NCBI GenBank assembly: GCA_964421195.1
Contig: CAYQWL010000002.1
Location: 16,801 to 70,900, forward strand
Origin: an uncultured bacterium
GTDB lineage: Bacteria; Muiribacteriota; UBA9980
Reading direction: 5' to 3'
DNA length: 54,100 nucleotides
Position 1 is the first letter of the stretch; every line of letters starts with the position of its first letter. Under the pieces are notes generated by a model. That model saw nothing but the letters and a program-made list of their open reading frames with translations, had not been told where the DNA came from and did not search any database. Below are positions 32,395-51,931 of the stretch, piece after piece. Position numbers and translations under genes: made by a program.

Positions 32395-32423
32395 TACATA
32401 CAATAAAATAAGGAGATAATATA

Positions 32424-36009: not shown

Positions 36010-37355
36010 TCATACCACCCCGCTTTTTCCACTATAGAAATAAATTTTCCGCCGCGCGCGATAAATTTAGCGCAGGAATTCATTATCTCATCGGCATATC
36101 CCGTGGCAAATATTATAATAGTATTTATTTCACGATAATTTTCAAGAATTTCGGGAGCTTTTATAACGATATCAGAACCGGGAATGAATTTATCGTTATA
36201 AAAAGGATTCACGTCGATTACAAATTTTATATCGCCGGAGTCGAAATTGCATGCATTAATAAGTGAAACGCCCCGCTGCCCGGCGCCCCAACCGCATATC
36301 ACGGCGCCTTCACGTCTGGCGCCGGATATAAATTTCTTTAAATTATCATAATATGATTTCATTTCCGAAGCAAAAATCTTTAGCCTGTCAGGGCTTAGCA
36401 ATTCCGGCTCACAGGAAAATACGGGCGCGATATTAAAAACGGCATTTCGAGCGTAAATACTATCGTTAAAAACCGCGTATATTAAAACGGAACCGCCTTC
36501 GAGATTGTTTTTTACGGCTTCGATAACCTGTAAACCATGTTTTTCGAGAAGAAATTTAAGGTTCGTCAGGGAAAAATATGAAAGATGTTCATGAAAAAAA
36601 GCATAAAACTGTTTTTGCGCTATAATATCGCCGGCCCATGGGACTTCAAGCGCGAAAACCCCGTAAGAGCGATTAAGCAAACATTTAACGCCCCGCATAA
36701 CGGAATCGAAATCGTTTAAATGTTCGAGAACATGACGCATTATAATCACATCCGCGCACGCGCGGCCGGGAGATGATATTCCGCTTTCTTTAGAAGAAAC
36801 AGCGTACTTTAAAAATAATCGCGAAAGTTTCCGTACGGAGTCTTTAGTAAAATAATCATTTATTATATGCACATTCTCGCCGGCGGCGGCGCTCAATCCT
36901 GAAGAAGGCTCGAAACCCGAAGCGAAAACGCCGCGCGAGGCGAAACATTCAAGCAACGCGCCTTCACCGCAGCCAATTTCAACGGCCGAACAGGGTGAAA
37001 ATTTATTAATTATATCCGCGCAAAGCCATTCGGCGTATTTTTTAAAACCGCCGGCATAGGCCGGAGTATAAATATATTTTTTATAAATATCGGGAGGCAC
37101 TATATCTACGAGCTGGATCAACCCGCAGCGGCGGCAATAATAAACATCGAGCGGAAAGCATCTGCCGCCGGCGTCTTCATCTGATGCCGCCGGGGAATTT
37201 AAAAAAATACCGGCACGCCGGCCGTTTTCAATTTTAAGCGCGCGCGCGGGTTTATCAACCGGTTCACCCGCCAGCGCAGCCGCGGGAAGAGAAAGAAACA
37301 GCGATAAACTTTTTCCGCCGCAAAGACGGCATTTTTCATTTTTATCAAATATCAC
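36006..37355 (-). CDS. NDP-sugar C-methyltransferase-like SAM methyltransferase (Zn-binding N-terminus)
   Basis: CRLCG and CRRCGLIQL Zn sites, EIGCGEG, HVLEH, HEHLSYFS, C-terminal GWGAGQRG. Confidence 0.85.
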   Translation of the reverse strand: MIFDKNEKCRLCGGKSLSLFLSLPAAALAGEPVDKPARALKIENGRRAGIFLNSPAASDEDAGGRCFPLDVYYCRRCGLIQLVDIVPPDIYKKYIYTPAYAGGFKKYAEWLCADIINKFSPCSAVEIGCGEGALLECFASRGVFASGFEPSSGLSAAAGENVHIINDYFTKDSVRKLSRLFLKYAVSSKESGISSPGRACADVIIMRHVLEHLNDFDSVMRGVKCLLNRSYGVFALEVPWAGDIIAQKQFYAFFHEHLSYFSLTNLKFLLEKHGLQVIEAVKNNLEGGSVLIYAVFNDSIYARNAVFNIAPVFSCEPELLSPDRLKIFASEMKSYYDNLKKFISGARREGAVICGWGAGQRGVSLINACNFDSGDIKFVIDVNPFYNDKFIPGSDIVIKAPEILENYREINTIIIFATGYADEIMNSCAKFIARGGKFISIVEKAGWYD

Positions 37356-38568
37356 AACCGCCTCCGTCGGACATACGTTTTATAATATATTTCGATGCCT
37401 CGCACGATGAATTCATAAAATTATAAAGATAAATTTTCCGCAAGCGTTCAAACTCAGTTCGATATTCATTACGCCGCAGCATCAATTCTTCGATAGAAGA
37501 CAAAAGTAAGGAACGAACTTCGCCGGGTTTTATTATCTTTCCGCATAGCGGCCTTAATAAAAGCTCTACGGGCTCTAATTCGAGTTTTTCATATTCCTTA
37601 TTATCCACGCGGCATGGAGTGTCGATGAAAAGCGCCGGCCTTGAAGTACCGAAAGTATATTCCAGATATATTCCGGACCAATCGGTAATTAAAACATCTG
37701 CTTTATGAAGATTTTCATCTTTAAGCATATCGAGTTCAAGCGATATGTTTGAAATTGTCTCAATATAACGCGCTATTCGAGCAACGGCTCCGGGAAAACG
37801 TTTTATAAATTCAGGATGCGGCCTTATTACCGCATTAATATCAGGCGCATTCCTTAAACTTTCAATCATGTCGAATACCGCCGAATCGAGTATATTTCCA
37901 TCCGTCCAGGTAGGCGCTATCATTACCGAAATTTTTCTTCCGGCCGCGTCGCCGCCCGATACGCTTTGCATCCGTTCAAACTCGATATGATCTGAAAAAA
38001 TCTTTTCTATTCTATGATAACCGCATTCGACAAGTGTTTTGGATTTAAGGCCGTATATTTCTTCAGACCGGCGCAATTCGTTTTTTTGATGAGATCCGGT
38101 GCATAAAACGGCGTCATAATGATCGAACGCATTTTTACGATATTGAAGATGAGTGCTGCCGGCGGAATGAAAAACATATATATAATGAACCGGATTTATC
38201 GAACGTTTAATATAAAAATTATCAAGATCCGGCATTGTCATTAAAAAAACTTTAGAATCGAGATAAACCATAATAAAAGCAAGCAAATAATTTATATAAA
38301 ATGTCTTTATACCGCTTCCCGGATTTTTACGGGATTCAGAAATTTTCGCCGCCCGCGCGAATATGGAATCATTTATATCAGACGTAATATAAGCTATTTC
38401 AATATCATTATCAGCACGCAATAATTCGTTTATTATGCCTTCATAATACTGGTAATAAATATCGCTTTCCGAATAAAAAACGATGCGTCTGGCCTTCGCG
38501 GACGCCGCCGAAAAAAGCCTGACGCAATCTTTTATTTCTTTAATTAAATTAAAGAAACCTTTAAACAT
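37345..38568 (-). CDS. CDP-glycerol/polyol phosphotransferase family (TagB/TagF-like)
   Basis: YVFHS, ECGY, IAPTW, IRPHP, ADVLITDWSGIYLEY. Start set at ATG 38568 because the track start (38700) lies inside hydG. Confidence 0.8.
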   Translation of the reverse strand: MFKGFFNLIKEIKDCVRLFSAASAKARRIVFYSESDIYYQYYEGIINELLRADNDIEIAYITSDINDSIFARAAKISESRKNPGSGIKTFYINYLLAFIMVYLDSKVFLMTMPDLDNFYIKRSINPVHYIYVFHSAGSTHLQYRKNAFDHYDAVLCTGSHQKNELRRSEEIYGLKSKTLVECGYHRIEKIFSDHIEFERMQSVSGGDAAGRKISVMIAPTWTDGNILDSAVFDMIESLRNAPDINAVIRPHPEFIKRFPGAVARIARYIETISNISLELDMLKDENLHKADVLITDWSGIYLEYTFGTSRPALFIDTPCRVDNKEYEKLELEPVELLLRPLCGKIIKPGEVRSLLLSSIEELMLRRNEYRTEFERLRKIYLYNFMNSSCEASKYIIKRMSDGGGCDI

Positions 38569-39937
38569 AAATATCCCGTTCGCCCTTATCAAAGCGTTCG
38601 ATATATCCCGCAAAACGCTTCCGCTCTTCTTCTTCGAGCAATTCGTTTTTAAGTTTATCGATAAGCGCCATACCGATTTTTTTAGTATCAGGCGAAGCAA
38701 AATCTATTAAATACTCATAAAAAGTCAAAAGCCCATTTATATTACAGAATTCATGTATATGTCCCGTTTTAGAAAGCGCCATAAACGATTCTCCGGTTCG
38801 AAGACTGCGGTAACACGAAGTGCAAAACGACGGCAGAAAACCTTTAAAAGCAAGCGCCGATATTACCTCGTCGAGAGAACGCTCATCGGAAACGACGAAC
38901 TGCCCGGCGGCTTCTTTCGGATTGGAATAACCGCCGGGTTCAGTTTTAGAACCGGCGGAAAGCTGCGAAACGCCGAGAGTAACCAGTTCATCACGCAGTT
39001 CCGGAGCTTCACGCGTGGATAAAATCATTCCCGTATAAGGCACCGCAAGACGCAAAACGGCCACCGCTAATTTAAATTGTTCATCGGTAAGCCTGTATTT
39101 ATTCATATCGTTTATATCAAAACCGGCGGCCGGTTCAAGACGGGGAATCGAAATGGTATGCGGTCCGACGCCATACTTATCATCGAGATATTTAGCCTGG
39201 CTCAAAAGTGCGAGCGTTTCAAACTTATAATCATAAAGACCGTATAAAACACCTATTCCCACGTCATCAATGCCGGCCTGATAACATTTATCGAATATGC
39301 TTATACGCCTGTCATAATCTCTTTTAGGGCCGGATGGATGCATCTTCATATACGTTTCCCGGTGAAAAACCTCGTGAAATAGTTGATAAGTACCGATATT
39401 CGCATTTTTTATCTTTACGAGATCATCATGTTCGACCGGCGCTAAATTAACGTTAACGCGTCTGATTTTATTGCCTTTATAATCGACTTTATATATAGTT
39501 TCAATAGCGGCGGTAATATGATCCACGCCGCATTTATTTAAATCTTCGCCGGCGACGAGCAAAATACGTTTATGCCCGCTTTTTAATATATTTAAAGTCT
39601 CTTCCGCCACTTCTTCGAGGGAAAGAGTCTTACGGGCGATATCTTGATTGGATTTTTTAAAACCGCAATAAACGCAATTATTGATACAATAATTTGAAAT
39701 ATATAACGGCGCGAATAAAACCATACGCCTGCCGTATATTTTTTCTTTAACCGCCCGCGCGGCTTTTTTTATAGCGGCGATCATTTCAGAATCTTCACAA
39801 TTTAAAAGAACTGCCGCTTCTGATATTTTAAGCGGCTTCATTTCCATGCTCTTTTCTATTATGTTTAAAATCTCTGACCGGGCTGTATTTTTAGTCATTT
39901 CGATCGATTCGTTAATTTTATTTTCATCAATAACCAT
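38561..39937 (-). CDS. hydG: [FeFe]-hydrogenase H-cluster radical SAM maturase HydG
   Basis: FAPLYISNYCINNCVYCGF (CxxxCxxC), GTYQLFHE, DDVGIGVLYGL, GPHTISIPR, SAGSKT, C-terminal SFCTSCYR...FC auxiliary cluster. Start is 39937 or 39955. Confidence 0.97.
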   Translation of the reverse strand: MVIDENKINESIEMTKNTARSEILNIIEKSMEMKPLKISEAAVLLNCEDSEMIAAIKKAARAVKEKIYGRRMVLFAPLYISNYCINNCVYCGFKKSNQDIARKTLSLEEVAEETLNILKSGHKRILLVAGEDLNKCGVDHITAAIETIYKVDYKGNKIRRVNVNLAPVEHDDLVKIKNANIGTYQLFHEVFHRETYMKMHPSGPKRDYDRRISIFDKCYQAGIDDVGIGVLYGLYDYKFETLALLSQAKYLDDKYGVGPHTISIPRLEPAAGFDINDMNKYRLTDEQFKLAVAVLRLAVPYTGMILSTREAPELRDELVTLGVSQLSAGSKTEPGGYSNPKEAAGQFVVSDERSLDEVISALAFKGFLPSFCTSCYRSLRTGESFMALSKTGHIHEFCNINGLLTFYEYLIDFASPDTKKIGMALIDKLKNELLEEEERKRFAGYIERFDKGERDIYV

Positions 39938-39969
39938 AAAAACCCACCATTCCATTTCTAAGTGCGATA

Positions 39970-41481
39970 TTATTTATAAAGCGGCAGCCGGACTGTAAAC
40001 ACGCTTCCTTTCTGGTATTCACTATCAACGGTTACAGTTCCTTTCTGGGCCGTCACCAATTTTTTTACGACCGATAATCCAAGGCCGGTGCCGGATATTT
40101 TTGAAGTTTCTTTAGTCTTACACCTGAAAAACTCCGTAAACAATTTCGGCAGGTCTTCTTTTCTGATGCCGTAGCCTGTATCTTTAACGGATATTACGCC
40201 ATAACCGCCTTCACCGAAATAACTCACGCGTATTAAACCGCCTTCAGGCGTATATTTGATGGCGTTAGATATTAAATTATTAAGTATCATTTCCAGAGAT
40301 TTTCCATCGGCTAATATTTGATTATCAACCATTTTCAAATCTTTTTCCAGAATTATTTTTTTCTTTTTCATTTCCTGCGCAAAAAATTCAAGCACGTTTT
40401 CAAGTTTTTCAGTAATATCGACGGGTTTAATTTCAAGATTAAGACGATTGGTCTGATGCCGCGATATTTGAAGCAGATCGTTAACCATTTCAAGCAAAGT
40501 CTCCGAACGTTCTTTACAGCGGCCAAGTTTTTCAATGATTTTATCGCGGTCGGTTATATAACCGTCAAGTATCAAATAAATATATCCAAGCGAAGCGGAT
40601 ATCGGGGCTTTTATTTCATGCGCCACCATTGAAACAAACTGATTTTTAAGATTTTCTATTTCTTTAAGTTTGGTTATATCATTTAAAACAACGCAATAAC
40701 CTTCAATTTCATGATCGGTAACGACGGCCGCGCAGGTTGCCTGATAAAACATCTCGTTTATCCTTATTTCTTTTTGAATCATCGTAAGAGATTTATTTTC
40801 AATCATGGAATTAACGAGGGCCTTAATCTGATTAATAAATTCAGAATCGTAATCGGAAATTTTAGTATATAATTTTATTCTAACGTTTAAATCAATATTT
40901 TCAAAGCAAGGATTATAAAGCACTATTTCAAGCTTACTGTTTAATACTATAAGCGGATTGGCCATGCACTGAACTACGGTATGCATTTTTGACTTTTCCT
41001 GGCCGAGAATTTTAAGCGAACTTTCAGCTTCTTCTTTTAACTTTTTATTCTGTACAAGAAGCGTGCGGCGCGTCATAGATTTTTGAACCGCGTATAATAT
41101 TTGTTCAGGGCTGAAAGGTTTGGAAATAAAATCGAAAGCGCCGTGTTTAATGGAATTAACGGCGGTATCTATAGAAGAGTAAGCCGTAACCATAATAGGA
41201 ACGATAGTCGGATATAATTCATTTATGCGGGTAATAAATTCGATGCCGTCCATACCGTCCATTTTCATATCGACAACCGTTATATCGACGCCGGCATGAT
41301 TTTTTTCGAGATAATCGAGCGCTTCAAAGGCCGACGGAAAAGGAATCGCGTCATAGCCGTTTTTTCTGATAACTTTCGTAAGAGCGATTCTAAACTGATC
41401 TTCATCGTCTATTACCAGAATTCTACCTGAAAAATTTTGCGTATCCATGAGTGCTCCTTTTAAATCCGGTTTTATTTTCAA
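39970..41481 (-). CDS. Hybrid response regulator-histidine kinase (REC, PAS-like, HisKA, HATPase)
   Basis: ILVIDDE, VDMKMDGMDG, VAHEIKAP, NLISNAIKY, DTGYGI, GTGLGL. Confidence 0.93.
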   Translation of the reverse strand: MKIKPDLKGALMDTQNFSGRILVIDDEDQFRIALTKVIRKNGYDAIPFPSAFEALDYLEKNHAGVDITVVDMKMDGMDGIEFITRINELYPTIVPIMVTAYSSIDTAVNSIKHGAFDFISKPFSPEQILYAVQKSMTRRTLLVQNKKLKEEAESSLKILGQEKSKMHTVVQCMANPLIVLNSKLEIVLYNPCFENIDLNVRIKLYTKISDYDSEFINQIKALVNSMIENKSLTMIQKEIRINEMFYQATCAAVVTDHEIEGYCVVLNDITKLKEIENLKNQFVSMVAHEIKAPISASLGYIYLILDGYITDRDKIIEKLGRCKERSETLLEMVNDLLQISRHQTNRLNLEIKPVDITEKLENVLEFFAQEMKKKKIILEKDLKMVDNQILADGKSLEMILNNLISNAIKYTPEGGLIRVSYFGEGGYGVISVKDTGYGIRKEDLPKLFTEFFRCKTKETSKISGTGLGLSVVKKLVTAQKGTVTVDSEYQKGSVFTVRLPLYK

Positions 41482-41602
41482 AAATTTATAACTTTCGCTT
41501 TATCGCTTTTATTTATTTTATATCATATCCGCGATATATTCAAGTAAAAAAAACGATAATTATATAAAACCGGAAATACGTAAAACCGCCGCATTAAATG
41601 AA

Positions 41603-43606
41603 CTATCCGAGAAGCCCTGCGCTCAAATTAGATTTAACGGGTAAAGTTATCTTAAAAGTAGTGGATTCGCCATAAACACTATCGACGGTAATTTTACCTC
41701 GATGCATTTTTATTATCCCATAAACGACGGGCAATCCAAGTCCCGTTCCCTTGCCATAACCTTTAGTAGTAAAAAATGGAGTAAACAATTTCGGCATTTT
41801 ATCTTTAGGAATGCCGATACCGTTATCATTAAAAGATATTATGACTTCTTCATCATGTTTTACCACGTGCACATTAATAATTCCCGGAGAACGTTTAGCC
41901 TCGATCAAAGCGTCTTTCGAATTAGAAATCAAGTTAGTAAAAACCTGAAGCAGCGCCGTTTGATCGGCTTCGATAACAAGCGAATCAGGGCAATCGACTT
42001 TAATAGAAATATTAATGCCGATAGAAACATAATCATTTCTTATTTTAGTGCATAAGTCTTTTATAAAAGCGGAAAAATCAAATTCAATTATAGTAAGTTT
42101 ATTTTCTCTGGAAAAATTAAGCATTCCGGTTATAATTTCTTTAGTACGGTTAATTTCGCTAATAATAGTTTTAACGTCATCTTTCAGTTCGTCGTTTTCG
42201 ATCTGCTCGTTCAGCATGTGCGCATACAGCAGAACCGTGCCGAGAGGATTATTTATTTCATGCGCGACTCCGGCAGCCATCTGACCGAGCGAAACTAATT
42301 TTTCTTTCTGTATAAGCTCATTTTGCGTAGATTTAAGCATTTGATTCGACTGTTGTAACAAATTAAGATTTTCTTCAAGTTTTTCTATAACATAAGGCAG
42401 GCACATTTCTTTTTCGGCGAGGCCGGCTATTATAGCGCGCGCCTTGGCGCGGCACGAAGGATAACCGCATGCGCCGCAATTTAGTTCATCTTTAGGCTGG
42501 GTTTTTCCCATTTCTATAAGCACTTTTTTTATTTCCGCCGAATCGGCTTCTTTAATTTCCGATACTTCTTCCGATTCAAATACCACGCTTAAATCAATAT
42601 TTTTATATTTTTCAATTTCTATTTTCCAGCGTTGCTGATTACTTTGAGACATACGGCTTTTAATATATTCAGACATTTGAGATTTTTTTTCAAAATAATT
42701 AAGCTCGGAACATATTTTAGGACCGTCGATGCAGCCGAGGCAAAAGAGCATATCAATAAATTTACCGTCAAGCGAACCTTTTTTAATCGAATCGAGCACC
42801 ATTAAAACACGGTCTTTGCCCTCTGTAACTATAGTTTCGTTATCTACTATATCCTCAGTTTTTTCGGCGCATTTTAACAGCCCTCCGGTAACCGGGTAAA
42901 TAGCTCCAAGATTGGCGTGCGGCGGATCAAAATCGATTTTATTGAGCTTTTCTATATCAATTTTATTTTCAATAATCCATAACTTTAATTCTTCAAATGT
43001 AATAACGTAATCAATGTCACGGATATAATTGCTTCTTTCATCTATTTTCGCTATGCACGGCCCGATAAACGCGGTTCGGCGGCCGGGGTTTTTCAATCTG
43101 GCCACGCGCGCGGAAGCCACCATAGGGCTGACTATCGGCGCTAAATATTTGATCAATTCGGGCTCGTATTTTTGAACGTATTTAACTATGGCAGGGCATG
43201 GAGTTGCAATTACGGTTTTTCCTTTATTTTCGGAAAGATATTTTTTATAAGCCAGAGTTACGAGATCGGCGCCAAAACCCACTTCATAAACATTTTTAAA
43301 GCCAAGCGCCTTTAAAACGCTGACGAGTTTAACGCCCACGTCCATAAAACTTACGACAAAAGACGGCGCAACCAATGCGTCTATATCTTTAAACGCGATA
43401 TCATTTTTAAGTTCGTTAAAATATGAAAGCACCACTTTAGCGTTTTGCGAACAAACCGTAGTGCAATGGCCGCATGAAATACAACGGAAGCTGATAACGC
43501 TCGCCTTGCCGTCTTTAACTTTAATGGCATGCGCCGGGCAGCTTTTTATACATGCATAACATTTTTTACATTTCTCTCCGATAGTGGATACTACTGACAC
43601 GCTCAT
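41603..43606 (-). CDS. Sensory group C [FeFe]-hydrogenase-like domain fused to histidine kinase (HydS-HK)
   Basis: 2x[4Fe-4S] CKKCYACIKSC and CISCGHC; variant H-cluster motifs TPCP, GPCIAKIDE, MLFCLGCIDG; FeS domain NCGACGYPSC; AHEINNPL, NLISNS, DNGIGI, GTGLGL. Confidence 0.9.
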   Translation of the reverse strand: MSVSVVSTIGEKCKKCYACIKSCPAHAIKVKDGKASVISFRCISCGHCTTVCSQNAKVVLSYFNELKNDIAFKDIDALVAPSFVVSFMDVGVKLVSVLKALGFKNVYEVGFGADLVTLAYKKYLSENKGKTVIATPCPAIVKYVQKYEPELIKYLAPIVSPMVASARVARLKNPGRRTAFIGPCIAKIDERSNYIRDIDYVITFEELKLWIIENKIDIEKLNKIDFDPPHANLGAIYPVTGGLLKCAEKTEDIVDNETIVTEGKDRVLMVLDSIKKGSLDGKFIDMLFCLGCIDGPKICSELNYFEKKSQMSEYIKSRMSQSNQQRWKIEIEKYKNIDLSVVFESEEVSEIKEADSAEIKKVLIEMGKTQPKDELNCGACGYPSCRAKARAIIAGLAEKEMCLPYVIEKLEENLNLLQQSNQMLKSTQNELIQKEKLVSLGQMAAGVAHEINNPLGTVLLYAHMLNEQIENDELKDDVKTIISEINRTKEIITGMLNFSRENKLTIIEFDFSAFIKDLCTKIRNDYVSIGINISIKVDCPDSLVIEADQTALLQVFTNLISNSKDALIEAKRSPGIINVHVVKHDEEVIISFNDNGIGIPKDKMPKLFTPFFTTKGYGKGTGLGLPVVYGIIKMHRGKITVDSVYGESTTFKITLPVKSNLSAGLLG

Positions 43607-43699
43607 CCCGCCCCGTCATATAAAAAATGATCAGGCTCAAAGCGGGACGGCATATAACCGGCGCGCTTCGAGGCCTGATATATCAGGTGTTCGTTATTT

Positions 43700-44107
43700 T
43701 TAATGACCGTGAGAATTATTGACCGCGGTATTTAATATACCGTTGACCTTTTCAAGTAAAATACCGGGATTAATCGGTTTATCAAGAAACATATCCGCTT
43801 TGATCCATTGCCGTTCCTTGGCTTCGTTCAAATCGAACTGGATTTCAGATTCCTGATTAACCGAAGTAGCGAGTATAACCGGAACGTCGGGACGCGCTTT
43901 TTTAATTTTATAAGCGAGTATAAAACCGGCATCGTAAGTTTCCATAATTAAATCGAGTATTACGAGATCGGGGGTGAATTTTTCGAATTTTTCCCAGCCT
44001 TCCTCGCCGGTTTCAGCGGTTTCTATTGAATATCCATTAGATGATAATGTTTCCGTAATTATTTCCCTTACATCGGAATCGTCGTCAACTATCAATATTT
44101 TCTTCAT
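43700..44107 (-). CDS. Single-domain response regulator (REC)
   Basis: ILIVDDD, LVILDLIM, ILATS, LDKP. Confidence 0.93.
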   Translation of the reverse strand: MKKILIVDDDSDVREIITETLSSNGYSIETAETGEEGWEKFEKFTPDLVILDLIMETYDAGFILAYKIKKARPDVPVILATSVNQESEIQFDLNEAKERQWIKADMFLDKPINPGILLEKVNGILNTAVNNSHGH

Positions 44108-44109
44108 GA

Positions 44110-45831
44110 TTATTTATCCCCCTTATACCTTGTGTGTAATAGCTCGTGCGCGTCATGTTCGTTTATATGCTTTTCATAAAGTTCTTTAACGTCGGGATTT
44201 TCATGTGAACGGCGGATGACGGAATTTTCATCGACTTTATAAGTGGTTTTAGTTCGCGATTTCAAAAGATCGGCATCGGTGTTAAACGGCTGACCGGCGC
44301 CTCCAACGCAACCCGCGGGGCAGCTCATAATTTCGACGAAATGAAGATCGGATTTTCCGGCGGAAATATCTTCTAATATCTCTACGGCGTTTCCAAGCCC
44401 ATTCACGACGCCTACGTTAATCTTTGTTCCATCTATATCGACCGTGGCGCGTTTAATTCCGGCCATACCACGAACCGGCTTGCAATCGATATTTTCAAGT
44501 TCTTTTCCCGTAACCATATTATACGCGGTTCTGATAGCGGCTTCCATAACGCCGCCCGTCGCGCCGAATATTTTACCCGCGCCTGAGGCATGAGCGAAAG
44601 GCCTGTCAAAATCAGAACTCTGTATTTTTTCATATTGTATGCCGAATTCATCGAGCAGCGAAAACAGTTCACGCGTGGTTAAAACGGCATCCACATTGGC
44701 CATGCCTTCATTTTGAAGCTGAGGCCGAACTATTTCAGATTTTTTAGCGACGCAGGGCATTACCGATACCACAAAAAGATCTTTCGCTTTAACTTTCAAC
44801 AGTTTTTCACTGAGATGTTTAAGCAGCGCGCCCTTCATTATATGGGGCGATTTGCAGCTCGACAGATGTTTTGTATGCTTCGGATAAAACGTTTCAATAA
44901 AATTAATCCATGCGGGACAGCACGAAGTAAACATCGGAAGCGGCTTATGTTTTTTAGTCAGCCGTTCGACGAGTTCTTTAGCTTCTTCCATAATAGTTAT
45001 ATCCGCCGCCGTACAGGTGTCAAAAACAAAATCAACGCCTATGCCGCGCAACGCGCCGATTATTTTACCGACAGCCTCTTCGACCGGTATCGATTTTTTA
45101 AAATATTCTGGAAATGTTACATGACATGCGGGCGCGAATTGAAAAGCCACCTTTTTTCCAGGATTGATTATCGCATCGATAACCGTTTTTTTATGAGGAA
45201 TTTCACGTAAAGCGCCGACGGGGCAAGCCATAATACACTGTCCGCAGGAAACGCAATTACCTTCAGCGAGAGATTTATAACTTCCCGGCGCTACATGCGT
45301 GCTGAAGCCGCGATTAGCGAAATCAATAGCCGACACTCTTTGCTTTTCGGCGCATACGGTAACGCAGCGGCCGCAAAGTATGCATTTCGCCATATCGCGT
45401 TCAACGGCGGGCGACGCTTTATCGATAACCATTTTCTTTTTAGCTCCGCCCTTAAAGGCGACTTCGTCAACGCCGTATTGTTTTGAAAGATCCTGCAACA
45501 GGCAATTTCCGCTTTTTGAACATGTAAGGCAGTCCTGTGGATGGTTAGAAAGTAAAAGTTCGATTATTTTCTTACGCGACATTCTAACCTGCGGCGAATC
45601 GGTGCGCACCTGCATTCCAGCTTCGGCCGGATACGAACAGGAAGCTATAAGGCGGCCGGTTTTAACGTCTTCGACCACGCAGATCCGGCATGCGCCTGAA
45701 GGCTTATAGCCTTCCATATAACAGAGTGTTGGAATAAACAGGCCGGCTTTTTTAGCAACCTGATAGATAGTTTCGCCTTTAATAAACTCGACTTCTTTAT
45801 TATTTATTGTCATTTTCAATTTCGTCTTCAC
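44110..45831 (-). CDS. hydA: [FeFe]-hydrogenase catalytic subunit HydA (group A, multimeric/bifurcating type)
   Basis: [2Fe-2S] C..GACRIC, His-ligated HPQDCLTC, 2x[4Fe-4S], canonical L1 TSCCPAW, L2 MPCVAKKSE, L3 EIMSCPAGCVGG; small-subunit RRSHENP...LLHT. Confidence 0.97.
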   Translation of the reverse strand: MKTKLKMTINNKEVEFIKGETIYQVAKKAGLFIPTLCYMEGYKPSGACRICVVEDVKTGRLIASCSYPAEAGMQVRTDSPQVRMSRKKIIELLLSNHPQDCLTCSKSGNCLLQDLSKQYGVDEVAFKGGAKKKMVIDKASPAVERDMAKCILCGRCVTVCAEKQRVSAIDFANRGFSTHVAPGSYKSLAEGNCVSCGQCIMACPVGALREIPHKKTVIDAIINPGKKVAFQFAPACHVTFPEYFKKSIPVEEAVGKIIGALRGIGVDFVFDTCTAADITIMEEAKELVERLTKKHKPLPMFTSCCPAWINFIETFYPKHTKHLSSCKSPHIMKGALLKHLSEKLLKVKAKDLFVVSVMPCVAKKSEIVRPQLQNEGMANVDAVLTTRELFSLLDEFGIQYEKIQSSDFDRPFAHASGAGKIFGATGGVMEAAIRTAYNMVTGKELENIDCKPVRGMAGIKRATVDIDGTKINVGVVNGLGNAVEILEDISAGKSDLHFVEIMSCPAGCVGGAGQPFNTDADLLKSRTKTTYKVDENSVIRRSHENPDVKELYEKHINEHDAHELLHTRYKGDK

Positions 45832-45837
45832 GCTAAA

Positions 45838-47658
45838 TCACTCCTTCACGATAGCTGAGAATTTACATGTGCTCAGGCAGAGCAGACAGCCTGTGCATTT
45901 ATCGGCCGCGATAACATAAGGCGTGCCGGGCTTTCCGTAAATCGCGCCCTGCGGGCATTTACGAGCGCAAAGACTGCATCCTCTACATTTTTCGGTAACT
46001 ATAACGCATTTAACCATCGATGAGCAAACGTGAGTGGGGCATTTTTTTTCAAAAATATGAGCTTCATATTCGTCACGAAAATGTTTGAGCGTGGATAAAA
46101 CCGGGTTGCTCGCGGTCTGTCCGAGGCCGCAGAGCGAACTATTTTTAATAACTGAACATAGTTCTTCGAGTTCGAGAACGCCTTTAAATCTAAGAAGCTC
46201 ATCGGAAGATTTTTTCTGATTCGACACATTGAGCACTATTCTATCGAGTATTTCATAAAGCCTTTTCGTGCCTTCACGGCAGGGGATACATTTACCGCAG
46301 GATTCGTTCTGGATAAAATTCATGAAAAAACGAGCCACATCGACCATACAGGTGGTATCGTCCATTACGACCATACCGCCGGAGCCCATTATTGCGCCGT
46401 TTTCTTTAAGAGATTCATAAGTTATTTTAGTATCCATAAGTTTTTCCGGCATACATGCGCCGGAAGGGCCGCCGATCTGTACGGCTTTAAATTTACGGCC
46501 TTCAGGAACGCCGCCGGCTATATCGTTAATCAGGGTCCTCAATGTAATTCCCATCGGCACTTCTATAAGGCCGGAATATTTAACGCGGCCCGTTACGGCA
46601 AAAACTTTCGTGCCGAGCGATTTTCCTTCGCCGAACGCCGCGAATTTAGAGGAGCCTTCACGCAATATCCAGGGAACGTTAGCAAAAGTTTCGACGTTAT
46701 TAATAACGGTCGGCTTACCAAAAAGGCCTTTTTCGGCAGGATATGGCGGGCGCGGAGTCGGCATTCCACGTTTACCTTCTATAGAAGCGAGAAGCGCGGT
46801 TTCTTCACCGCATACAAAAGCTCCTGCGCCCTTTTTAACTTTAAGTTCAAAGCAAAACTTAGAATTAAGAATATTTTTACCGAGCACGCCTTTTTCTTTA
46901 CACTGCTTGATAGCGTTTTCGAGGCGTTCGATAGCGAGCGGATATTCGGCCCTCGCATAAATATATCCGAAAGAAGCGCCGATAGCGTAAGCGCCGATAA
47001 TTATACCTTCTATAACTCTGAACGGATCGCTTTCGAGCACGGCGCGATCCATAAACGCGCCGGGATCGCCTTCGTCGGCGTTCATAACTATATATTTTTT
47101 ATTACCAGGCTGTTTATACGCCAGGTCCCATTTAATGGAAGTCGGAAACCCGCCGCCGCCGCGGCCCCTTAATCCGGATTTTTTTATCTCGTCTATAACA
47201 TCCTCCGGTTTCATAGCTGAAAGCACTTTCTTTAAAGCCACGAATCCAAGAGCTTTTGAATAATCATCAAACGAATAAGGGTTTATTATACCGCAATTTT
47301 CAAGCGCCACTCTTTTTTGACGGGCAAAATAAGGCGTTTCATAAACGCATGGCATATTCGGAGTTTTTTTATAAGTGCCGAGAAGCCATTTATTGGAATA
47401 ATTTTTATTATCGATCATTTCGATTAAAAACTCGGTAACGTTTTGAGGAGTTATTTCGCAATAAGCCATACGCGGCATGGAAGAAAATTCGAAATCGACC
47501 ATAACCTCGCGCGAGCAATAACCGATACAACCGACCGGTATCATTTCAAAAGCCATTTTACGAACATCGAGAAAATCTTCGATTGTTTTTTTTATTTCGA
47601 GCGCTCCCTGCGCAAGACCGCAGGTACCCATCCCGATATATACCTTTAACTTATCCAT
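45838..47658 (-). CDS. hydB: NADH-binding flavin subunit HydB (NuoF-like)
   Basis: N-terminal thioredoxin-like FeS, SGLRGRGGGGFPT, NADEGDPGAFMDR, GAFVCGEET, ESCGKCIPCREG, C-terminal 2x[4Fe-4S]; GGAGG SD. Confidence 0.96.
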   Translation of the reverse strand: MDKLKVYIGMGTCGLAQGALEIKKTIEDFLDVRKMAFEMIPVGCIGYCSREVMVDFEFSSMPRMAYCEITPQNVTEFLIEMIDNKNYSNKWLLGTYKKTPNMPCVYETPYFARQKRVALENCGIINPYSFDDYSKALGFVALKKVLSAMKPEDVIDEIKKSGLRGRGGGGFPTSIKWDLAYKQPGNKKYIVMNADEGDPGAFMDRAVLESDPFRVIEGIIIGAYAIGASFGYIYARAEYPLAIERLENAIKQCKEKGVLGKNILNSKFCFELKVKKGAGAFVCGEETALLASIEGKRGMPTPRPPYPAEKGLFGKPTVINNVETFANVPWILREGSSKFAAFGEGKSLGTKVFAVTGRVKYSGLIEVPMGITLRTLINDIAGGVPEGRKFKAVQIGGPSGACMPEKLMDTKITYESLKENGAIMGSGGMVVMDDTTCMVDVARFFMNFIQNESCGKCIPCREGTKRLYEILDRIVLNVSNQKKSSDELLRFKGVLELEELCSVIKNSSLCGLGQTASNPVLSTLKHFRDEYEAHIFEKKCPTHVCSSMVKCVIVTEKCRGCSLCARKCPQGAIYGKPGTPYVIAADKCTGCLLCLSTCKFSAIVKE

Positions 47659-47808
47659 AAAATTTTTCCTCCAGGATTATATTTATGATATATTTTTATT
47701 TATTCATAACTTCATGCTTTATATTTTACATTATGTTTTATATCTTACATTTTATAAAAACAATAAAGCATTAGATGTTTTTCAATCATCCGAAATTCGG
47801 AATTTAAA

Positions 47809-48969
47809 TTAATGCGCCGCGGCCTGACTTTTATTAGAATCTTTTTCATTAAGATAATCGACTTTAAGCTTATCTACTATTGCAAGAGTCTTTGCGACGT
47901 CGAGATGCCCGTAAAATTTATCATTAATCATAATAACCGGCGCGATAGAGCACGCGCCAAGGCAGGCGACCTGCTGAAGTGAAAATATTTTATCGCGGGT
48001 AGTCTGACCGACCTCTATCTTTAAATGCTCTTTAAGCGCATTTAATATATTAAGAGAGCCTTTAACGTGACATGCGGTGCCGCGGCATACGGCTATTTGA
48101 AAATGCCCCGGCGGAGTGAGTTTAAATTGATTATAAAAAGTCGCCACTCCATATACTTTAGAATCGGCTATACCGAGATATTCCGAAATTTTGATTATAT
48201 CGTCTTTCGAGATATAACCTCTTATATCCTGAACATCCTGCAATATTGGAATTAAGTTATCCCTTGATTTAGCGTATTTATTAAACGCCTCATAAATTCG
48301 TTTTTCGATGTCACCGTTAACCATTTCAATTTTCCCTCCATTGTTTCTATAGTTGTTCAGATTAATTTGATATGACAGGAACATATAACTTGCGGCCAGA
48401 TTCTCGTTTTTAACGATCGCGTCGTCCGGCAGTTTTAAATGAACCGGCGCGAAATTCCAGAAATAACGAACACCAAGTTCATATAATTTAGCCGCTACTT
48501 TAGCCGCGCCATTCGCGGGCAATGTCAAAACGGCAAGCTTAACGCCAAGCGTACTGATTACTTCTGAAAGATTGTCAAGCGGTAATATTTTAAAAGTTTC
48601 AACCGTAGTGCCGATAACCTGTGGTGAATGATCGAATATCGCGACTATTTTCAAACCGTAATTAAAAAAATTCGAATAATTACTCACGGCCCTGCCAAGG
48701 TTGCCGGCCCCGATGACTATCGCTTTATTAACGGTAGTCGTACCAAGAACCATTTTAATCGCCGAAATAAATTCATTTATTTCATAGCCCTTATTAGGCT
48801 TTCCATTCAAATTAAGAAATGAAAGGTCTTTTTTTATATTATTCTGGTCTATAAAAAAATGTTTTGAAAGAATCGACGAGCTTATAAATTCATGGCCCTG
48901 CTCTTTTAAATGACACGCTAACTGAAGATACCTGGGCAATCTTTCAACGATTCTAAGACTGAAATCCAT
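47809..48969 (-). CDS. rex-hydC: In-frame fusion of redox-sensing repressor Rex (aa ~1-205) and HydC/NuoE-like [2Fe-2S] subunit (aa 216-386)
   Basis: Rex: ERLPRY, IKKDLS, GKPNKGY, GAGNLGRA, NFAP. HydC: LIPILQDVQ, VATFYNQF, VCRGTACHVKG, CLGACSIAPV. No stop codon between the two parts. Confidence 0.9.
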   Translation of the reverse strand: MDFSLRIVERLPRYLQLACHLKEQGHEFISSSILSKHFFIDQNNIKKDLSFLNLNGKPNKGYEINEFISAIKMVLGTTTVNKAIVIGAGNLGRAVSNYSNFFNYGLKIVAIFDHSPQVIGTTVETFKILPLDNLSEVISTLGVKLAVLTLPANGAAKVAAKLYELGVRYFWNFAPVHLKLPDDAIVKNENLAASYMFLSYQINLNNYRNNGGKIEMVNGDIEKRIYEAFNKYAKSRDNLIPILQDVQDIRGYISKDDIIKISEYLGIADSKVYGVATFYNQFKLTPPGHFQIAVCRGTACHVKGSLNILNALKEHLKIEVGQTTRDKIFSLQQVACLGACSIAPVIMINDKFYGHLDVAKTLAIVDKLKVDYLNEKDSNKSQAAAH

Positions 48970-48992
48970 ATATCGTTCGCCCCATTAAAGAT

Positions 48993-49010
48993 TAGTTATT
49001 TTTTTCACTA
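48993..49010. promoter_or_regulatory. Putative Rex operator
   Basis: The 18-bp site reads TAGTGAA-AAAA-ATAACTA on the minus strand, an imperfect palindrome resembling TTGTGAA-N4-TTCACAA / TTGTTAA-N4-TTAACAA. It lies just downstream of the -10 box. Confidence 0.6.
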
Positions 49011-49015
49011 TCAAA

Positions 49016-49044
49016 ATGATACACTTTTTTCAAATTAATGTCAA
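49016..49044 (-). promoter_or_regulatory. Sigma-70 promoter of the rex-hydC operon
   Basis: Minus strand TTGACA (49044-49039), N17, TATCAT (49021-49016). Confidence 0.7.
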
Positions 49045-49495
49045 GTTAATTTCGAGCATTTTTTGGTATTTTTTAGTTTTTTTTACAAAAAAGAGAAAAA
49101 AAATATCCAATTTATTTTATAACATTATTAATACAATATTTTTGAAAAAATATGTATTTTTTCACGCTAATCATTTAAATAAACTTAATATAACAACTAT
49201 AAAAACTTCTGGAACCGATTACGAATTTCCCTGTAAACACATTATTTTTTTTAAAAAAAATCAGCCTTTTTTTAATTAAGCTTATTTTTAGATTAATTAT
49301 ATTCATGTATATAATTTTAAAAATTATATTTTTATACATTTTTTTGATTTTTTTCTTGATTTTTTTATTTTATATGGTATAATTAATTTAACCTGAGTTA
49401 TGTTACTTTTTTCAACTCATTCGGAAACAGTGCAAGGGTTCGTTATTCTTTGAAAATTTGGGCTGGCCATTATAGCGGTCCGGGGATGGTGCAGT

Positions 49496-49942
49496 ATGTT
49501 AGAAAAAGTGAAAATCCTGCTTGCCGAAGACGATTTGAAAACAGCTTCATTAATTTACGAGCTGCTTTCTTCGAACTCCATCTACGAAATAAAGTGGGTA
49601 GAAAACGGGGCTGTAGCGGTAGAATCCGCTCTCAAAGAGAAGTTCGATATTATTTTCATGGACATTCAAATGCCGGTAATGGACGGCATCGAAGCCGTTA
49701 AAAAGCTTCGTTCTTCGGGCTATTCAGGCTTAATAGTCGCCCTGACAGCTTATTTTGAAAAAGAAAGATGCATGGCCGCCGGAATGAACGATTATATTCA
49801 AAAACCCTTTTCCATAAAAGATTTCATAAAAAAAATGAATGAAATAAATTATAAAAAAGGCGCAAACGAAGAACTGCGCCCCGCCTCGCCGCTTGAGCAG
49901 AGCGAAGCGCCCGTCGATCTTGAAAAATTTTTAAATCAATAA
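49496..49942 (+). CDS. Single-domain response regulator (REC)
   Basis: ILLAEDD, IIFMDIQMPVMDG, ALTA, YIQKP. Confidence 0.93.
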   Translation: MLEKVKILLAEDDLKTASLIYELLSSNSIYEIKWVENGAVAVESALKEKFDIIFMDIQMPVMDGIEAVKKLRSSGYSGLIVALTAYFEKERCMAAGMNDYIQKPFSIKDFIKKMNEINYKKGANEELRPASPLEQSEAPVDLEKFLNQ

Positions 49943-49969
49943 TATCAACGGTAATGGAACCGGGCGGCA

Positions 49970-50791
49970 ATGAACGAAAGATTCAATTTTGACAATTATG
50001 TTGACAGGGCATACGTAACCGGCAATATGCTCTTAGAAGCCGGCGAGCATGACCGCGCGCTCGAATGTTTCAATAAAGCTCTTGAATTAGACGAAGGATT
50101 TACCTGCGCCATGTTTCATAAAGGATTAGCTTTAGTGAACCTCAAGCGTTATGACGAAGCTATATGCTGCTACAATATGCTTCTTGACATAGACCCGAAA
50201 GACACAGGAGTGCTCGAACACAAGGGCGTCGCGCTCATTGAAATAAATCATTACGAAGAAGCCGCGAAATGCTATAAAAAACTTCTCGAATTAGAGCCTG
50301 ACAATTCCCGCGCATATCTAAAAATGGGGCATATTTATCAAATATATGGCAATTACAAAGAAGCCTTATCATATTTTGACAAATCGCTCGAATTAAATTA
50401 CGGCGACAGGCGGGCCTGGTATCTTAAAGGCATCGTTCTTGCCGAGCAGGGTTTACTTTCCTCGATAAAACATAAATTCAACGAAGCGCTTAAATGTTTT
50501 GAAAAAGCTTTAGAATGCGCCCCACGCGATACGGACGTATTAAAGGACAAAGCTAAGGTTCTGACTTATCTCGGCGACAACGAACGCGCTCTTATAATCT
50601 ATCATAAAATCAGCGATATAATTCCCGGCGATCCTATCGCCATTACCGCTCTTGCAAAACTTTACAAAAAAATGAACCGTCTCGAAGATTCGTTAGCATA
50701 TTACAAAAAACTTCTCGAAATAAATACGGATACAACCATAACCGCCGAAATAGAATATCTTACCAACCGCCTCAAAAACAAACATTATTAA
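49970..50791 (+). CDS. Tetratricopeptide repeat protein
   Basis: Repeated A..C[FY].KALEL.P/ KG.AL motifs at about 34-aa spacing. Confidence 0.92.
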   Translation: MNERFNFDNYVDRAYVTGNMLLEAGEHDRALECFNKALELDEGFTCAMFHKGLALVNLKRYDEAICCYNMLLDIDPKDTGVLEHKGVALIEINHYEEAAKCYKKLLELEPDNSRAYLKMGHIYQIYGNYKEALSYFDKSLELNYGDRRAWYLKGIVLAEQGLLSSIKHKFNEALKCFEKALECAPRDTDVLKDKAKVLTYLGDNERALIIYHKISDIIPGDPIAITALAKLYKKMNRLEDSLAYYKKLLEINTDTTITAEIEYLTNRLKNKHY

Positions 50792-51007
50792 TATGTATTT
50801 TTAATATTCATAACGCGGCTTATCTAACATACAATCCCGGCCACGCCGTCCGGCCGCATTATCTTATCCGGCCTTTAAAATTTTTCACACCTCAAAATTT
50901 CAATCACAAACAATTCTATAAGCTTATTAAACTTATTTATAAGCTTAAATTATAAACTTAATTAACAAGTTTTTAATAAGCCCATTACTAAAATTCAAAA
51001 TTTTTCA

Positions 51008-51036
51008 TTGACAAAAGGCCCGCGATTATCTATAAT
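51008..51036 (+). promoter_or_regulatory. Consensus sigma-70 promoter
   Basis: TTGACA-N17-TATAAT perfect match upstream of the 51134 gene. Confidence 0.75.
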
Positions 51037-51133
51037 ACATTATGTATATGTATCGAAAATATTACAGCATTCGTACCGAATGATTTAATATTAATAACAT
51101 GCAAACAAGCAACATCTCATTCAGGAGGAACAA

Positions 51134-51919: not shown

Positions 51920-51931
51920 ATATGGAATAAA

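Follow-up and report, generated by a model that had tools for sequence, protein, structure and literature searches.

A hydrogenase operon of uncultured Wallbacteria with Rex joined to the HydC subunit and a widespread HydS-kinase module

The locus between positions 38561 and 49942 of the window (the whole analysed stretch of 54,100 nucleotides) brings together an [FeFe] hydrogenase and several putative sensors, and it raises the question whether these parts belong together and what in their arrangement is new. The initial annotation regarded them as the best candidate for an undescribed system in the window. Judged by its sequence, the locus is a hydrogenase operon of uncultured Wallbacteria with a widespread HydS-kinase module for which H2 sensing is putative, and the one unusual feature of this operon is Rex joined to the enzyme subunit HydC. 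All genes of the hyd locus are present at the coordinates given below and the ends of the interval are ends of open reading frames (ORFs). Pfam and NCBIfam agree with the earlier domain calls (Rex–HydC fusion, catalytic HydAB, hydrogenase-like sensor kinase, second kinase, receiver and maturase), so that the gene observation stands, while its interpretation found support in part only.

The hydrogenase and its cassette in other phyla

The gene hydB (45838-47658, minus strand; Pfam and NCBIfam) codes for a NuoF-like flavoprotein that has an NADH/FMN site and, besides an N-terminal domain, a C-terminal one for two [4Fe-4S] clusters, and its product aligns in full length with the electron-bifurcating subunits 9n5u_B, 7q4v_B, 8a6t_B and 7p5h_B (E 1e-177 to 1e-211). 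The catalytic [FeFe] hydrogenase subunit is encoded by hydA (44110-45831, minus strand; PF02906, PF02256 and N-terminal FeS domains). Among solved structures its product comes closest to 8a6t_A, named “electron bifurcating hydrogenase subunit HydA1” (541 bits over the full length), it aligns in full length also with 7q4v_A, and the H-cluster motifs TSCCP, MPCVAK (MPCxxK) and EIMSCPAGC (ExMxCxxGC) are intact. A complete HydA, a NuoF-like HydB and a NuoE-like HydC with four cysteines are the features of HydABC of the Bfu type (group A3). The NCBIfam model NF040763 for NADH-dependent [FeFe] hydrogenases of group A6 reached 727.1 bits, under its cut-off of 765. From these sequence features HydABC is assigned to the NADH/ferredoxin-linked [FeFe] hydrogenases of the electron-bifurcating Bfu family, with bifurcation as a predicted property.

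In more than 12 other phyla 38 loci with a HydS-kinase were found, which belong to Ignavibacteriales, Bacteroidales, Planctomycetota, Verrucomicrobiota, Elusimicrobiota and Calditrichota as well as to Acidobacteriota, Actinomycetota, Desulfobacterota, Myxococcota, Spirochaetota and Hydrogenedentes. HydABC is located upstream in 29 of them, a receiver (REC) is adjacent in 32, a receiver-kinase follows downstream in 36, and Rex (counted if within 10 kb of the HydS-kinase) is present in 17. The recurring cassette reads [Rex]-HydC-HydB-HydA-HydS/HK-REC-REC/HK-[HydE/G/F], with the HydS-kinase directly 3′ of hydA in 30 of the 38 loci and with maturases at its flanks in 15. The order HydA-REC-HydS/HK is common only to the window locus and three others (L018, L021, L042). 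No DNA-binding response regulator is encoded in the core cassette. Since the cassette recurs in so many loci and phyla, the joint occurrence of the enzyme with an NADH sensor and an H2-sensor-like kinase at one locus is a conserved trait and not accidental; the synteny for which the initial annotation proposed to search is clearly there.

The kinase-linked type as such, on the other hand, was already described. HydDB names its group C1 “histidine kinase-linked (putative)” (PMC5037454), and Meheust et al. [quoted passage not shown] This type shows the same architecture and the same neighbours as the window. The homologues from these phyla are 38–47% identical and are accompanied by the cassette HydCBA-HydS/HK-REC-REC/HK, often with Rex; there, however, rex is a separate gene where it occurs, whereas in the window it is fused to hydC. 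The Elusimicrobia work was a genomic note without experiments, and our literature search returned neither an experimental study of a kinase-fused [FeFe] hydrogenase nor a paper on an in-frame Rex–HydC fusion. The supposed undescribed system therefore narrows to the in-frame joining of Rex to HydC as its new element, as the HydS-kinase module was noted before and is widespread across phyla.

Rex joined to HydC

The fused gene (47809-48969, minus strand; 386 amino acids; Pfam and NCBIfam) consists of a Rex part (48352-48969), a flexible linker (about 48325-48351) and a HydC part (47809-48324). The Rex half (residues 4-206; NF003994, 195 bits) aligns over residues 4-205 with the full length of Thermotoga maritima Rex 3wg9 (E 1.7e-34), and the HydC/NuoE half (residues 220-369; PF01257, 170 bits) aligns over residues 224-370 with T. 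maritima HydC 7p5h_C (E 2.5e-39) and matches also 8a6t_C. A winged helix (PF06971) at residues 6-50 aligns to the Rex structures 3wg9, 5zz5, 2vt2 and 1xcb. Invariant among the fusions are the winged-helix residues Arg10, Asp48, Lys60, Gly61 and Tyr62, the NAD(H)-pocket motifs G87-A-G89-N-L-G92 (GxGxxG), F112-D113 and N172-F-A-P175 (NFAP), and the [2Fe-2S] ligands Cys295, Cys300, Cys336 and Cys340 of the HydC domain. The C-terminal swapped helix of Rex is retained as well (helix 191-209 in the AlphaFold2 model, alignment up to residue 205 of 206). In this model both domains have mostly pLDDT values of 85–98, and values below 50 occur only at residues 212-218.

Among 5.8 billion, about 20 protein clusters contain the fusion, nearly all from Wallbacteria. 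It is genuine because the uninterrupted ORF recurs in about 17 clusters whose assemblies come independently from NCBI, JGI, ENA and Logan, and because the reading frame is kept through linker indels; an assembly error is ruled out on the same grounds. Its origin can be deduced from other phyla, where rex immediately precedes hydC in 10–12 loci and the two ORFs either overlap by 4 nt (L020, L022) or are 2–19 nt apart (L019, L007), so that one lost stop codon would give a fusion. Neighbouring, translationally coupled rex and hydC would thus have merged into one ORF in the Wallbacteria lineage. It is conceivable that this was a tolerated accident, i.e. that Rex works normally with a passenger, that the enzyme uses only HydC from an internal start and that nothing new arose. 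The narrow spacing of the ORFs elsewhere, the variable and disordered linker, the rarity of the fusion and the retained internal Shine–Dalgarno sequence with its ATG fit such an explanation. We nevertheless consider it unlikely: the fusion persists across Wallbacteria down to 67% identity with a frame that outlives the linker indels, and combinations of Rex with a [2Fe-2S] domain arose in at least four lineages, including one (P0241, L090) without a hydrogenase nearby, which hints at a selectable property.

The internal ribosome-binding site (48322-48339, minus strand) comprises GGAGG (48339-48335), 10 nt and an ATG (48324-48322) that corresponds to Met216 of the fusion and would give a HydC of 171 amino acids. 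It equals the hydB site in strength and exceeds the site at the rex start. The pattern GGA GGK ... ATG does not vary among five loci of Wallbacteria despite differing linker residues, and a second fusion lineage keeps an equivalent AAGGGAGA...ATG. This suggests that free HydC may also be made from Met216, and most of the HydC for the enzyme would probably come from there. Each Rex molecule would then bear a tethered HydC domain.

The promoter of the hyd operon (49016-49044, minus strand) is situated in the intergenic region 48970-49495 with a GC content of 0.22–0.26. It is composed of TTGACA (49044-49039), a 17-nt spacer and TATCAT (49021-49016), and with matches at 11 of 12 positions it ranks first among the sigma-70-like sites between 38000 and 50000. 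CTTGACA-N17-TAT(C/G)AT is kept in five Wallbacteria loci whose Rex–HydC proteins are 67–90% identical. Just 3′ of the -10 element the candidate operator O1 follows, a 20-bp dyad (48992-49011, minus strand) of the form (A/T)TAGTGAA-AAAA-ATAACTAA. All five divergent Wallbacteria loci have the core GTGAAAAAAATAAC unchanged, with varying flanks. The 16-mer TAGTGAAAAAAATAAC (48995-49010) is exact in four of the five and differs by one change in L093, where the dyad carries a symmetric, compensatory replacement (TTGGT...ACCAA instead of TTAGT...ACTAA). Each half-site of O1 equals a Rex half-site with one inserted base; without this insertion the dyad has four mismatches to either Rex consensus. The canonical Rex box (TTGTGAAN4TTCACAA or TTGTTAAN4TTAACAA, up to 3 mismatches) was not detected at the fusion-gene promoters of the window, L001 and L004. 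In a second fusion lineage of independent origin (L088, L089) the Rex box TTGTGAATTGTTTCACAA is found without any mismatch at the corresponding place relative to the promoter. We infer that the fused Rex binds O1, which could alternatively be the target of another factor or form a small 5′-UTR hairpin.

Is the fused Rex still a repressor? Its altered recognition helix and wing (IKKDLSxLNLNGKPNKGY instead of canonical (I/V)R(K/R)DLSYFGxxGxxGxGY) count against this. The Rex domain might rather be an allosteric sensor, bound to HydABC via HydC, that does not repress transcription and tunes activity or oligomerisation of the enzyme by the NADH/NAD+ ratio. Besides the missing canonical box, the flexible tether is compatible with such a role, and neither the operon nor the rest of the 54-kb window contains a separate hydC gene. 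Regulatory domains are moreover found repeatedly N-terminal to HydC-type domains, such as REC–HydC (P0384), DUF3786–HydC (P0339) and Rex joined to a short [2Fe-2S] domain (P0279, P0341). Yet the winged helix shows the strongest conservation within the fusions (mean pairwise identity 83.7%, compared with 65.1% for the Rossmann part and 81.2% for HydC), which would hardly be expected if the protein did not bind DNA. The conserved dyad at the transcription start and the perfect Rex box in the other fusion lineage also speak for a DNA-binding protein, and the internal ribosome-binding site could supply HydC free of Rex. A purely enzyme-bound sensor seems thus quite improbable to us.

Most likely the Rex part, as a sensor of the NADH/NAD+ ratio, is still an autorepressor. 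At low NADH a Rex dimer would occupy the dyad, a diverged Rex box that overlaps the transcription start; NADH would free Rex, more hydrogenase would be produced and NADH would be reoxidised. No free Rex paralogue is encoded within the 54-kb window, and one elsewhere in the genome is possible. Autoregulation by Rex has a precedent in Caldicellulosiruptor bescii, where Rex represses [FeFe] hydrogenase genes together with hydG and regulates itself (PMC6391272). Rex of this Firmicutes type is, however, a free protein of about 210 amino acids acting on TTGTGAAN4TTCACAA, whereas Rex of the window is tied to HydC and its presumed operator is the diverged 20-bp dyad. Trigger enzymes such as PutA are bifunctional enzyme–repressor proteins. 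Like Rex–HydC they unite a DNA-binding repressor domain and a domain of the regulated enzyme in one polypeptide, but there is no sequence relationship between PutA and Rex–HydC, and it is only putative that the latter alternates between binding to DNA and to the enzyme complex.

The HydS-kinase and its receivers

The gene hydS-HK (41603-43606, minus strand; 667 amino acids; Pfam and NCBIfam) codes for a sensory-type [FeFe] hydrogenase with a kinase, in the domain order 2x[4Fe-4S], H-domain, PF04060 FeS domain, HisKA and HATPase. The N-terminal cluster motifs are CKKCYACIKSCP and CISCGHCTTVC, and the H-cluster cysteines Cys137, Cys184, Cys289 and Cys292 are kept. If compared to CpI (reference residues from PMC8163306), C299 is replaced by Pro136, M353 by Gly182 and M497 by Leu287. 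The C-terminal Cx2Cx4Cx16C motif (C377-x2-C380-x4-C385-x16-C402) is invariant in 16 sequences. Invariant are also His449 of the H-box AHEINNPL and the N, G1 and G2 boxes for ATP (Asn558, Asn562, Asp594-x-Gly596-x-Gly598 and Gly620-Thr-Gly-Leu-Gly624). No Pfam match to a PAS domain was obtained after the C-terminal cluster; HisKA begins at residue 440, and the AlphaFold2 model has a single continuous helix (403-468) that connects Cys402, the last ligand of the cluster, with His449.

The closest known counterparts are the putative sensory hydrogenases TmHydS from T. maritima (group C, M2f) and TamHydS from Thermoanaerobacter mathranii (group D, M2e). All three have N-terminal 2x[4Fe-4S], no proton-relay cysteine and the C-terminal Cx2Cx4Cx16C motif, and the HydS-kinase shares M353G with TmHydS and M497L with TamHydS (PMC8163306). 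In contrast with both, which are devoid of a kinase domain, it carries HisKA and HATPase after the cluster via a single helix, and it has no PAS domain, the feature that defines subclass M2f of group C. A sensory role is putative for all [FeFe] hydrogenases of groups C and D.

Two further signalling proteins accompany this kinase. REC135 (43700-44107, minus strand; 135 amino acids; PF00072) is a dedicated single-domain receiver with Asp52, Thr81 and Lys109. It starts 2 nt past the hydA stop, is orthologous to the HydS-kinase-linked receivers of other phyla (87–103 bits) and still follows hydA in L001, whose locus has no HydS-kinase. The receiver-kinase (39970-41481, minus strand; Pfam) has an N-terminal receiver, a middle region of about 130 amino acids and then HisKA and HATPase. 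Its start is probably Met12 (nt 41448), which is preceded by AAAGGAG-N5-ATG, and its orthologue in L006 gives weak PAS matches.

H2 would be bound at a slow, sensor-type H-cluster without proton-relay cysteine, and the signal may pass from the C-terminal cluster domain through the continuous helix to His449 and alter autophosphorylation, with subsequent transfer of phosphoryl groups to REC135 and the receiver-kinase. [quoted passage not shown] This behaviour of TamHydS, the putative status of sensing in groups C and D and the core cassette without a DNA-binding output could also indicate that the protein is a ferredoxin or iron–sulfur redox reporter or simply a slow hydrogenase, and that the two-component module controls something other than the hydrogenase. 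We see little likelihood in this, as Lys358 and all ligands of the H-cluster are the same in every phylum compared, the gene mostly follows hydA directly and often has maturases at its side, and the sensor-type substitutions are common to TmHydS and TamHydS. A separate input of the Fe-S redox state, as proposed initially, was not supported. We regard as fairly probable a model in which the Wallbacteria form of a widespread cassette ties HydABC to two sensing devices, namely NADH-responsive autorepression by Rex and H2 sensing by the HydS-kinase with a putative phosphorelay. What we infer within it is that the fused Rex binds DNA, that the internal start is used, that the kinase depends on H2, and the order of phosphotransfer.

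Related arrangements are known from other organisms. In Ruminococcus albus a sensory hydrogenase is paired with regulatory genes beside the enzyme (PMC6776011). The [NiFe] system HoxBC/HoxJ/HoxA of Ralstonia eutropha (cited in PMC5665086 and PMC5037454) is similar in that a hydrogenase of low activity senses H2 and feeds a kinase controlling hydrogenase genes, but its metal centre and family are unrelated, sensor and kinase are separate proteins, and the output HoxA binds DNA whereas the window cassette encodes no such regulator. In R. albus a Ser/Thr phosphatase and a PAS domain are the signalling partners, not a two-component relay. Rex is reportedly listed in the R. albus cluster too, by Zheng et al. 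in 2014.

The edges of the locus

At the downstream end hydG (38561-39955, minus strand) encodes the radical SAM H-cluster maturase (TIGR03955, 505 bits, cut-off 312), and at the opposite end a receiver-only protein of 148 amino acids is divergently transcribed (49496-49942, plus strand). Both adjoin the locus only in relatives whose Rex–HydC shows about 89% identity (L094) and are absent as neighbours in loci with 82%, 70% and 67% identity. The maturase that was counted to the module is present, but its linkage is lineage-specific within Wallbacteria and confined to close relatives. As to the two free receivers proposed as parts of the module, REC135 is conserved, with an adjacent receiver in 32 of the 38 loci, while the divergent one was rejected: it scores only 17–36 bits against the hydrogenase-linked receiver family (members 87–103 bits) and is the first gene of another operon, separate from the hyd operon, with the order receiver-TPR-unknown-cyclase.

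Gene content and distribution of the hyd cassette

Judged by its sequence, the hyd locus falls into a known and widespread family of hydrogenase cassettes that was noticed earlier but is uncharacterised. ORF listing and profile searches recovered every gene named in the initial annotation at its assigned coordinates. The minus strand encodes the fusion protein Rex-HydC (47809-48969, 386 aa) with Rex at residues 4-206 and an in-frame NuoE/HydC domain at 220-369, HydB, HydA with intact H-cluster motifs, the dedicated receiver REC135 (43700-44107, 135 aa), a HydS-type [FeFe] hydrogenase fused to a histidine kinase (HydS-kinase, 41603-43606, 667 aa), a protein with receiver-HisKA-HATPase architecture (receiver-kinase, 39970-41481) and HydG. 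HydS-kinase comprises two [4Fe-4S] motifs, the [FeFe] H-domain, a C-terminal FeS motif, HisKA and HATPase. Past an AT-rich spacer (GC 0.22-0.26) a further receiver of 148 aa is found on the plus strand. HydABC is a putative bifurcating-family enzyme according to alignments of HydA, whose closest solved chain is an “electron bifurcating hydrogenase subunit HydA1”, and of HydB, which aligns over its full length to bifurcating-family flavoproteins; the score for the NCBIfam A6 model lies under its cut-off.

The start of the receiver-kinase gene was probably called too early (41448-41481) and Met12, with the site AAAGGAG-N5-ATG, is likelier. ORF 37345-38700 overlaps hydG by 140 nt (38561-38700), so its start was probably also called too early and the real one likely lies further downstream. 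The AT-rich spacer between rex-hydC and hydB (47659-47808, minus strand, 150 nt) contains a short hairpin TCCGAATTTCGGA (47789-47801) after the rex-hydC stop codon and a weak promoter-like site (47758-47730); in related Wallbacteria loci its length is 64 nt (L004), 111 nt (L001), 291 nt (L094) or 35 nt (L093). An Rfam scan of 37000-51000 with E up to 1 returned zero RNA families and thus gives no riboswitch or leader explanation.

Comparison of gene order bears out the initial annotation in that its core components are syntenic elsewhere, namely in at least 38 loci from more than 12 phyla. For this survey one genome per species was scanned and ORFs were annotated against the domains of the window, which yielded at least 36 full-length HydS-kinase loci in addition to two found earlier. 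HydC-HydB-HydA lies directly upstream of HydS-kinase in 29 of the 38 listed loci, an adjacent receiver of the special subfamily of REC135 occurs in 32 and a downstream receiver-kinase in 36, while Rex within 10 kb (17 loci) and maturases (15 loci) are less frequent. No Wallbacteria locus is among the matches listed from the species-representative scan, the best of which is 45% identical. Proteins with the architecture of HydS-kinase are very common. All Wallbacteria loci examined contain the block RexHydC-HydB-HydA-REC. It is followed by HydS-kinase and receiver-kinase in loci with 89%, 82% and 70% identical fusion protein; the 67%-identical locus has neither of them, and its receiver is succeeded by HydF. 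Only at 89% fusion identity do HydG and the divergent receiver adjoin the hyd block.

The reading of the locus as a self-regulating module that integrates NADH, Fe-S redox state and H2 is upheld in its gene observations and only partly in its interpretation. An “undescribed system” it is not, since the kinase-fused form was already noted in HydDB as putative histidine-kinase-linked group C1 (PMC5037454) and by Meheust et al. (2020), who reported precisely this type of group C hydrogenase with a fused kinase, next to trimeric group A enzymes and close to Rex.

In loci of Ignavibacteria type or from some Thermoleophilia (L006, L008-L013, L015, L018, L021 and L040) a second hydrogenase cluster stands right after the cassette (e.g., L010 13968-19553). 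Its products are a small receiver, a HydC of 157 aa, a HydB that is short at ~400 aa, a HydA that is long at ~640 aa and, in most cases, a histidine kinase; the receiver gene abuts or overlaps hydC.

The Rex-HydC fusion and its candidate operator

The novel feature of this otherwise known cassette is the Rex-HydC fusion. A literature search for Rex-HydC or Rex-NuoE fusions and for Wallbacteria hydrogenases found nothing relevant, and only ~20 clusters with this architecture came out of a search through 5.8 billion clustered proteins, the remaining matches being free Rex or free NuoE/HydC. Seventeen of these clusters share 67-90% identity with the window protein and belong to Candidatus Wallbacteria wherever the organism is named; two further ones are distant (32-33% identity). 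The fusion is real because the ORF recurs in independent assemblies and its frame survives linker indels. In cassette loci of other phyla rex is located immediately 5' of hydC in 10-12 cases; L020 and L022 show an overlap of 4 nt, L019 and L007 a gap of 2-19 nt. A single stop-codon loss would explain the fusion.

When 1.84 billion representatives were searched exhaustively by a profile-free method, one more Rex plus NuoE-like protein (P0241) was found, together with two Rex proteins whose [2Fe-2S] domain is short, a REC-HydC fusion (P0384) and a DUF3786-HydC fusion (P0339). The contigs of P0021, P0022 and P0384 do not extend far enough to show gene context. P0241 (L090 3033-4184) is a Rex with full NuoE-like [2Fe-2S] domain; no hydrogenase is encoded near it, its neighbours being UPF0164, MazG, radical SAM and cell-shape genes, and its Fe-S domain may serve Rex itself in this lineage. 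P0279 (L091 3574-10584) combines Rex and a short thioredoxin-like [2Fe-2S] domain in 301 aa; its gene directly follows hydC-hydB-hydA (HydA of 677 aa, T. maritima type) and precedes genes for a PAS protein and a SpoIIE/PP2C phosphatase. Apparent HydC-Rex proteins with two matched stretches (P0242, P0270, P0292 and P0309) were rejected as tandem Rex-Rex proteins of 394-443 aa, and so was an apparent fusion in L033, where the frames of Rex and HydC differ and high GC content accounts for the artefactual long ORF.

The Rex part aligns end-to-end to solved Rex structures and its NAD(H)-binding motifs are invariant in the Rex-HydC alignment. Among 13 Wallbacteria-type fusions the mean pairwise identity is 83.7% for the winged helix, 81.2% for HydC, 80% for the C-terminal helix, 65.1% for the Rossmann domain and 56.9% for the linker, which marks the DNA-binding part as most strongly constrained. 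In the AlphaFold2 prediction both domains are confident and the tether between them (212-218) is disordered.

A canonical Rex box was not found upstream of the Wallbacteria fusion genes. Subsequent comparison of promoters across species revealed a diverged dyad (48992-49011, minus strand): five loci have in common CTTGACA-N17-TAT(C/G)AT and, after it, an invariant core GTGAAAAAAATAAC, which is embedded in the 20-bp dyad TTAGTGAA-AAAA-ATAACTAA, and in L093 the dyad is changed symmetrically (TTGGT...ACCAA). In the two GC-rich distant fusions a perfect TTGTGAATTGTTTCACAA occupies the equivalent place just past the promoter. In Caldicellulosiruptor bescii, [FeFe] hydrogenase genes and hydG are repressed by Rex, which also autoregulates (PMC6391272). 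From the conserved dyad, the Rex box of the distant lineage and these known targets we interpret the dyad as a diverged Rex operator, which Rex would bind, and the fused Rex as a putative autorepressor. Regulon search in the 54-kb window gave only chance-level copies of the 16-mer with 3 mismatches, and an inverted-repeat scan of the AT-rich spacer gave only low-complexity pairs. A weaker copy of the motif GTGAAAAAAATA(A/T/G)C, which lies on the opposite strand some 95 bp further upstream than the main dyad, may serve as an auxiliary operator; L004 (9862-9877) and L094 (9864-9879) each show 2 mismatches in this copy, and in the window (about 49100-49120) it is degenerate.

The linker also contains GGAGG, 10 nt and ATG (Met216), with DNA invariant in five loci despite differing encoded residues. 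This site equals the ribosome-binding site of hydB in strength, is stronger than the rex start site and has a retained equivalent in the distant fusion lineage. Because of this strength and invariance free HydC is probably made too; free Rex cannot be made from the rex-hydC gene.

The putative HydS-kinase relay and its possible targets

Aligned to the reference hydrogenase CpI, HydS-kinase retains the cluster ligands and shows C299 -> Pro, M353 -> Gly and M497 -> Leu, sharing the second replacement with TmHydS and the third with TamHydS (PMC8163306). Its C-terminal Cx2Cx4Cx16C and all kinase boxes are invariant, and a PAS domain is absent. The structure model has a single helix (403-468) between the last cysteine ligand and His449. 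As the C-terminal cluster of TamHydS does not respond to H2 (PMC13104023), a conformational signal is by analogy more likely than one carried by a change in the redox state of this cluster.

None of the 38 loci has a DNA-binding response regulator in the core cassette, and a REC-HTH protein within ~2.5 kb upstream of hydC is found only in L027, L034 and L042. The relay may possibly act via an unlinked regulator, or directly on the enzyme or Rex-HydC. In one elaboration of the latter, which we regard as rather unlikely, HydC docks regulators and hydrogenase control is partly post-translational. Phosphorylation of REC135 downstream of the H2-sensing kinase would make it bind HydABC or Rex-HydC and alter activity, and Rex-HydC would be a trigger enzyme that represses the operon only when outside HydABC; transcription would thereby report the NADH level and the degree of enzyme assembly. 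The lack of a cassette-borne DNA-binding regulator is no more than suggestive of this whole reading, as are the receiver still next to hydA in L001, a Wallbacteria locus without kinase genes, the translational coupling of receiver gene and hydC in the second cluster of Ignavibacteria-type loci, and the existence of REC-HydC and several Rex-[2Fe-2S] fusions. If true, this would be the first case of an electron-bifurcating hydrogenase being itself the target of signal-dependent regulation.

[quoted passage not shown] Kinase-fused HydS offers one, i.e. autophosphorylation and phosphotransfer under H2 versus inert gas, in a cassette carried by many uncultured anaerobes from over 12 phyla. Rex-HydC could show whether an enzyme-tethered redox repressor binds DNA and couples assembly to transcription. 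Both questions would bear on how fermenters and syntrophs adjust the amount of H2 they produce to NADH load and H2 back-pressure.

The plus-strand receiver and flanking genes

The divergent receiver, counted as a system component in the initial annotation, was rejected as such. Receivers of other loci score 87-103 bits with REC135 versus 17-36 bits with the plus-strand protein, and the linkage of the plus-strand set to the hyd locus is not conserved, being kept only in L094, the closest relative. Given these low scores and the genes downstream, i.e. those of a TPR protein, a 261-aa protein without Pfam match and a 669-aa adenylate/guanylate cyclase, the set 49496-53941 (plus strand) was treated as a separate operon and looks like a signalling operon of its own.

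In L004 (18917-20953) a 370-aa protein without Pfam match and a PBP-like binding protein are encoded directly after the receiver-kinase. Their counterparts by size and Pfam content lie in the window at 31282-33272 on the other (plus) strand, ~7 kb away, and this displacement indicates local rearrangement. Between this pair and the receiver-kinase gene, hydG as well as cell-wall glycosyl and methyl transferase genes are located.
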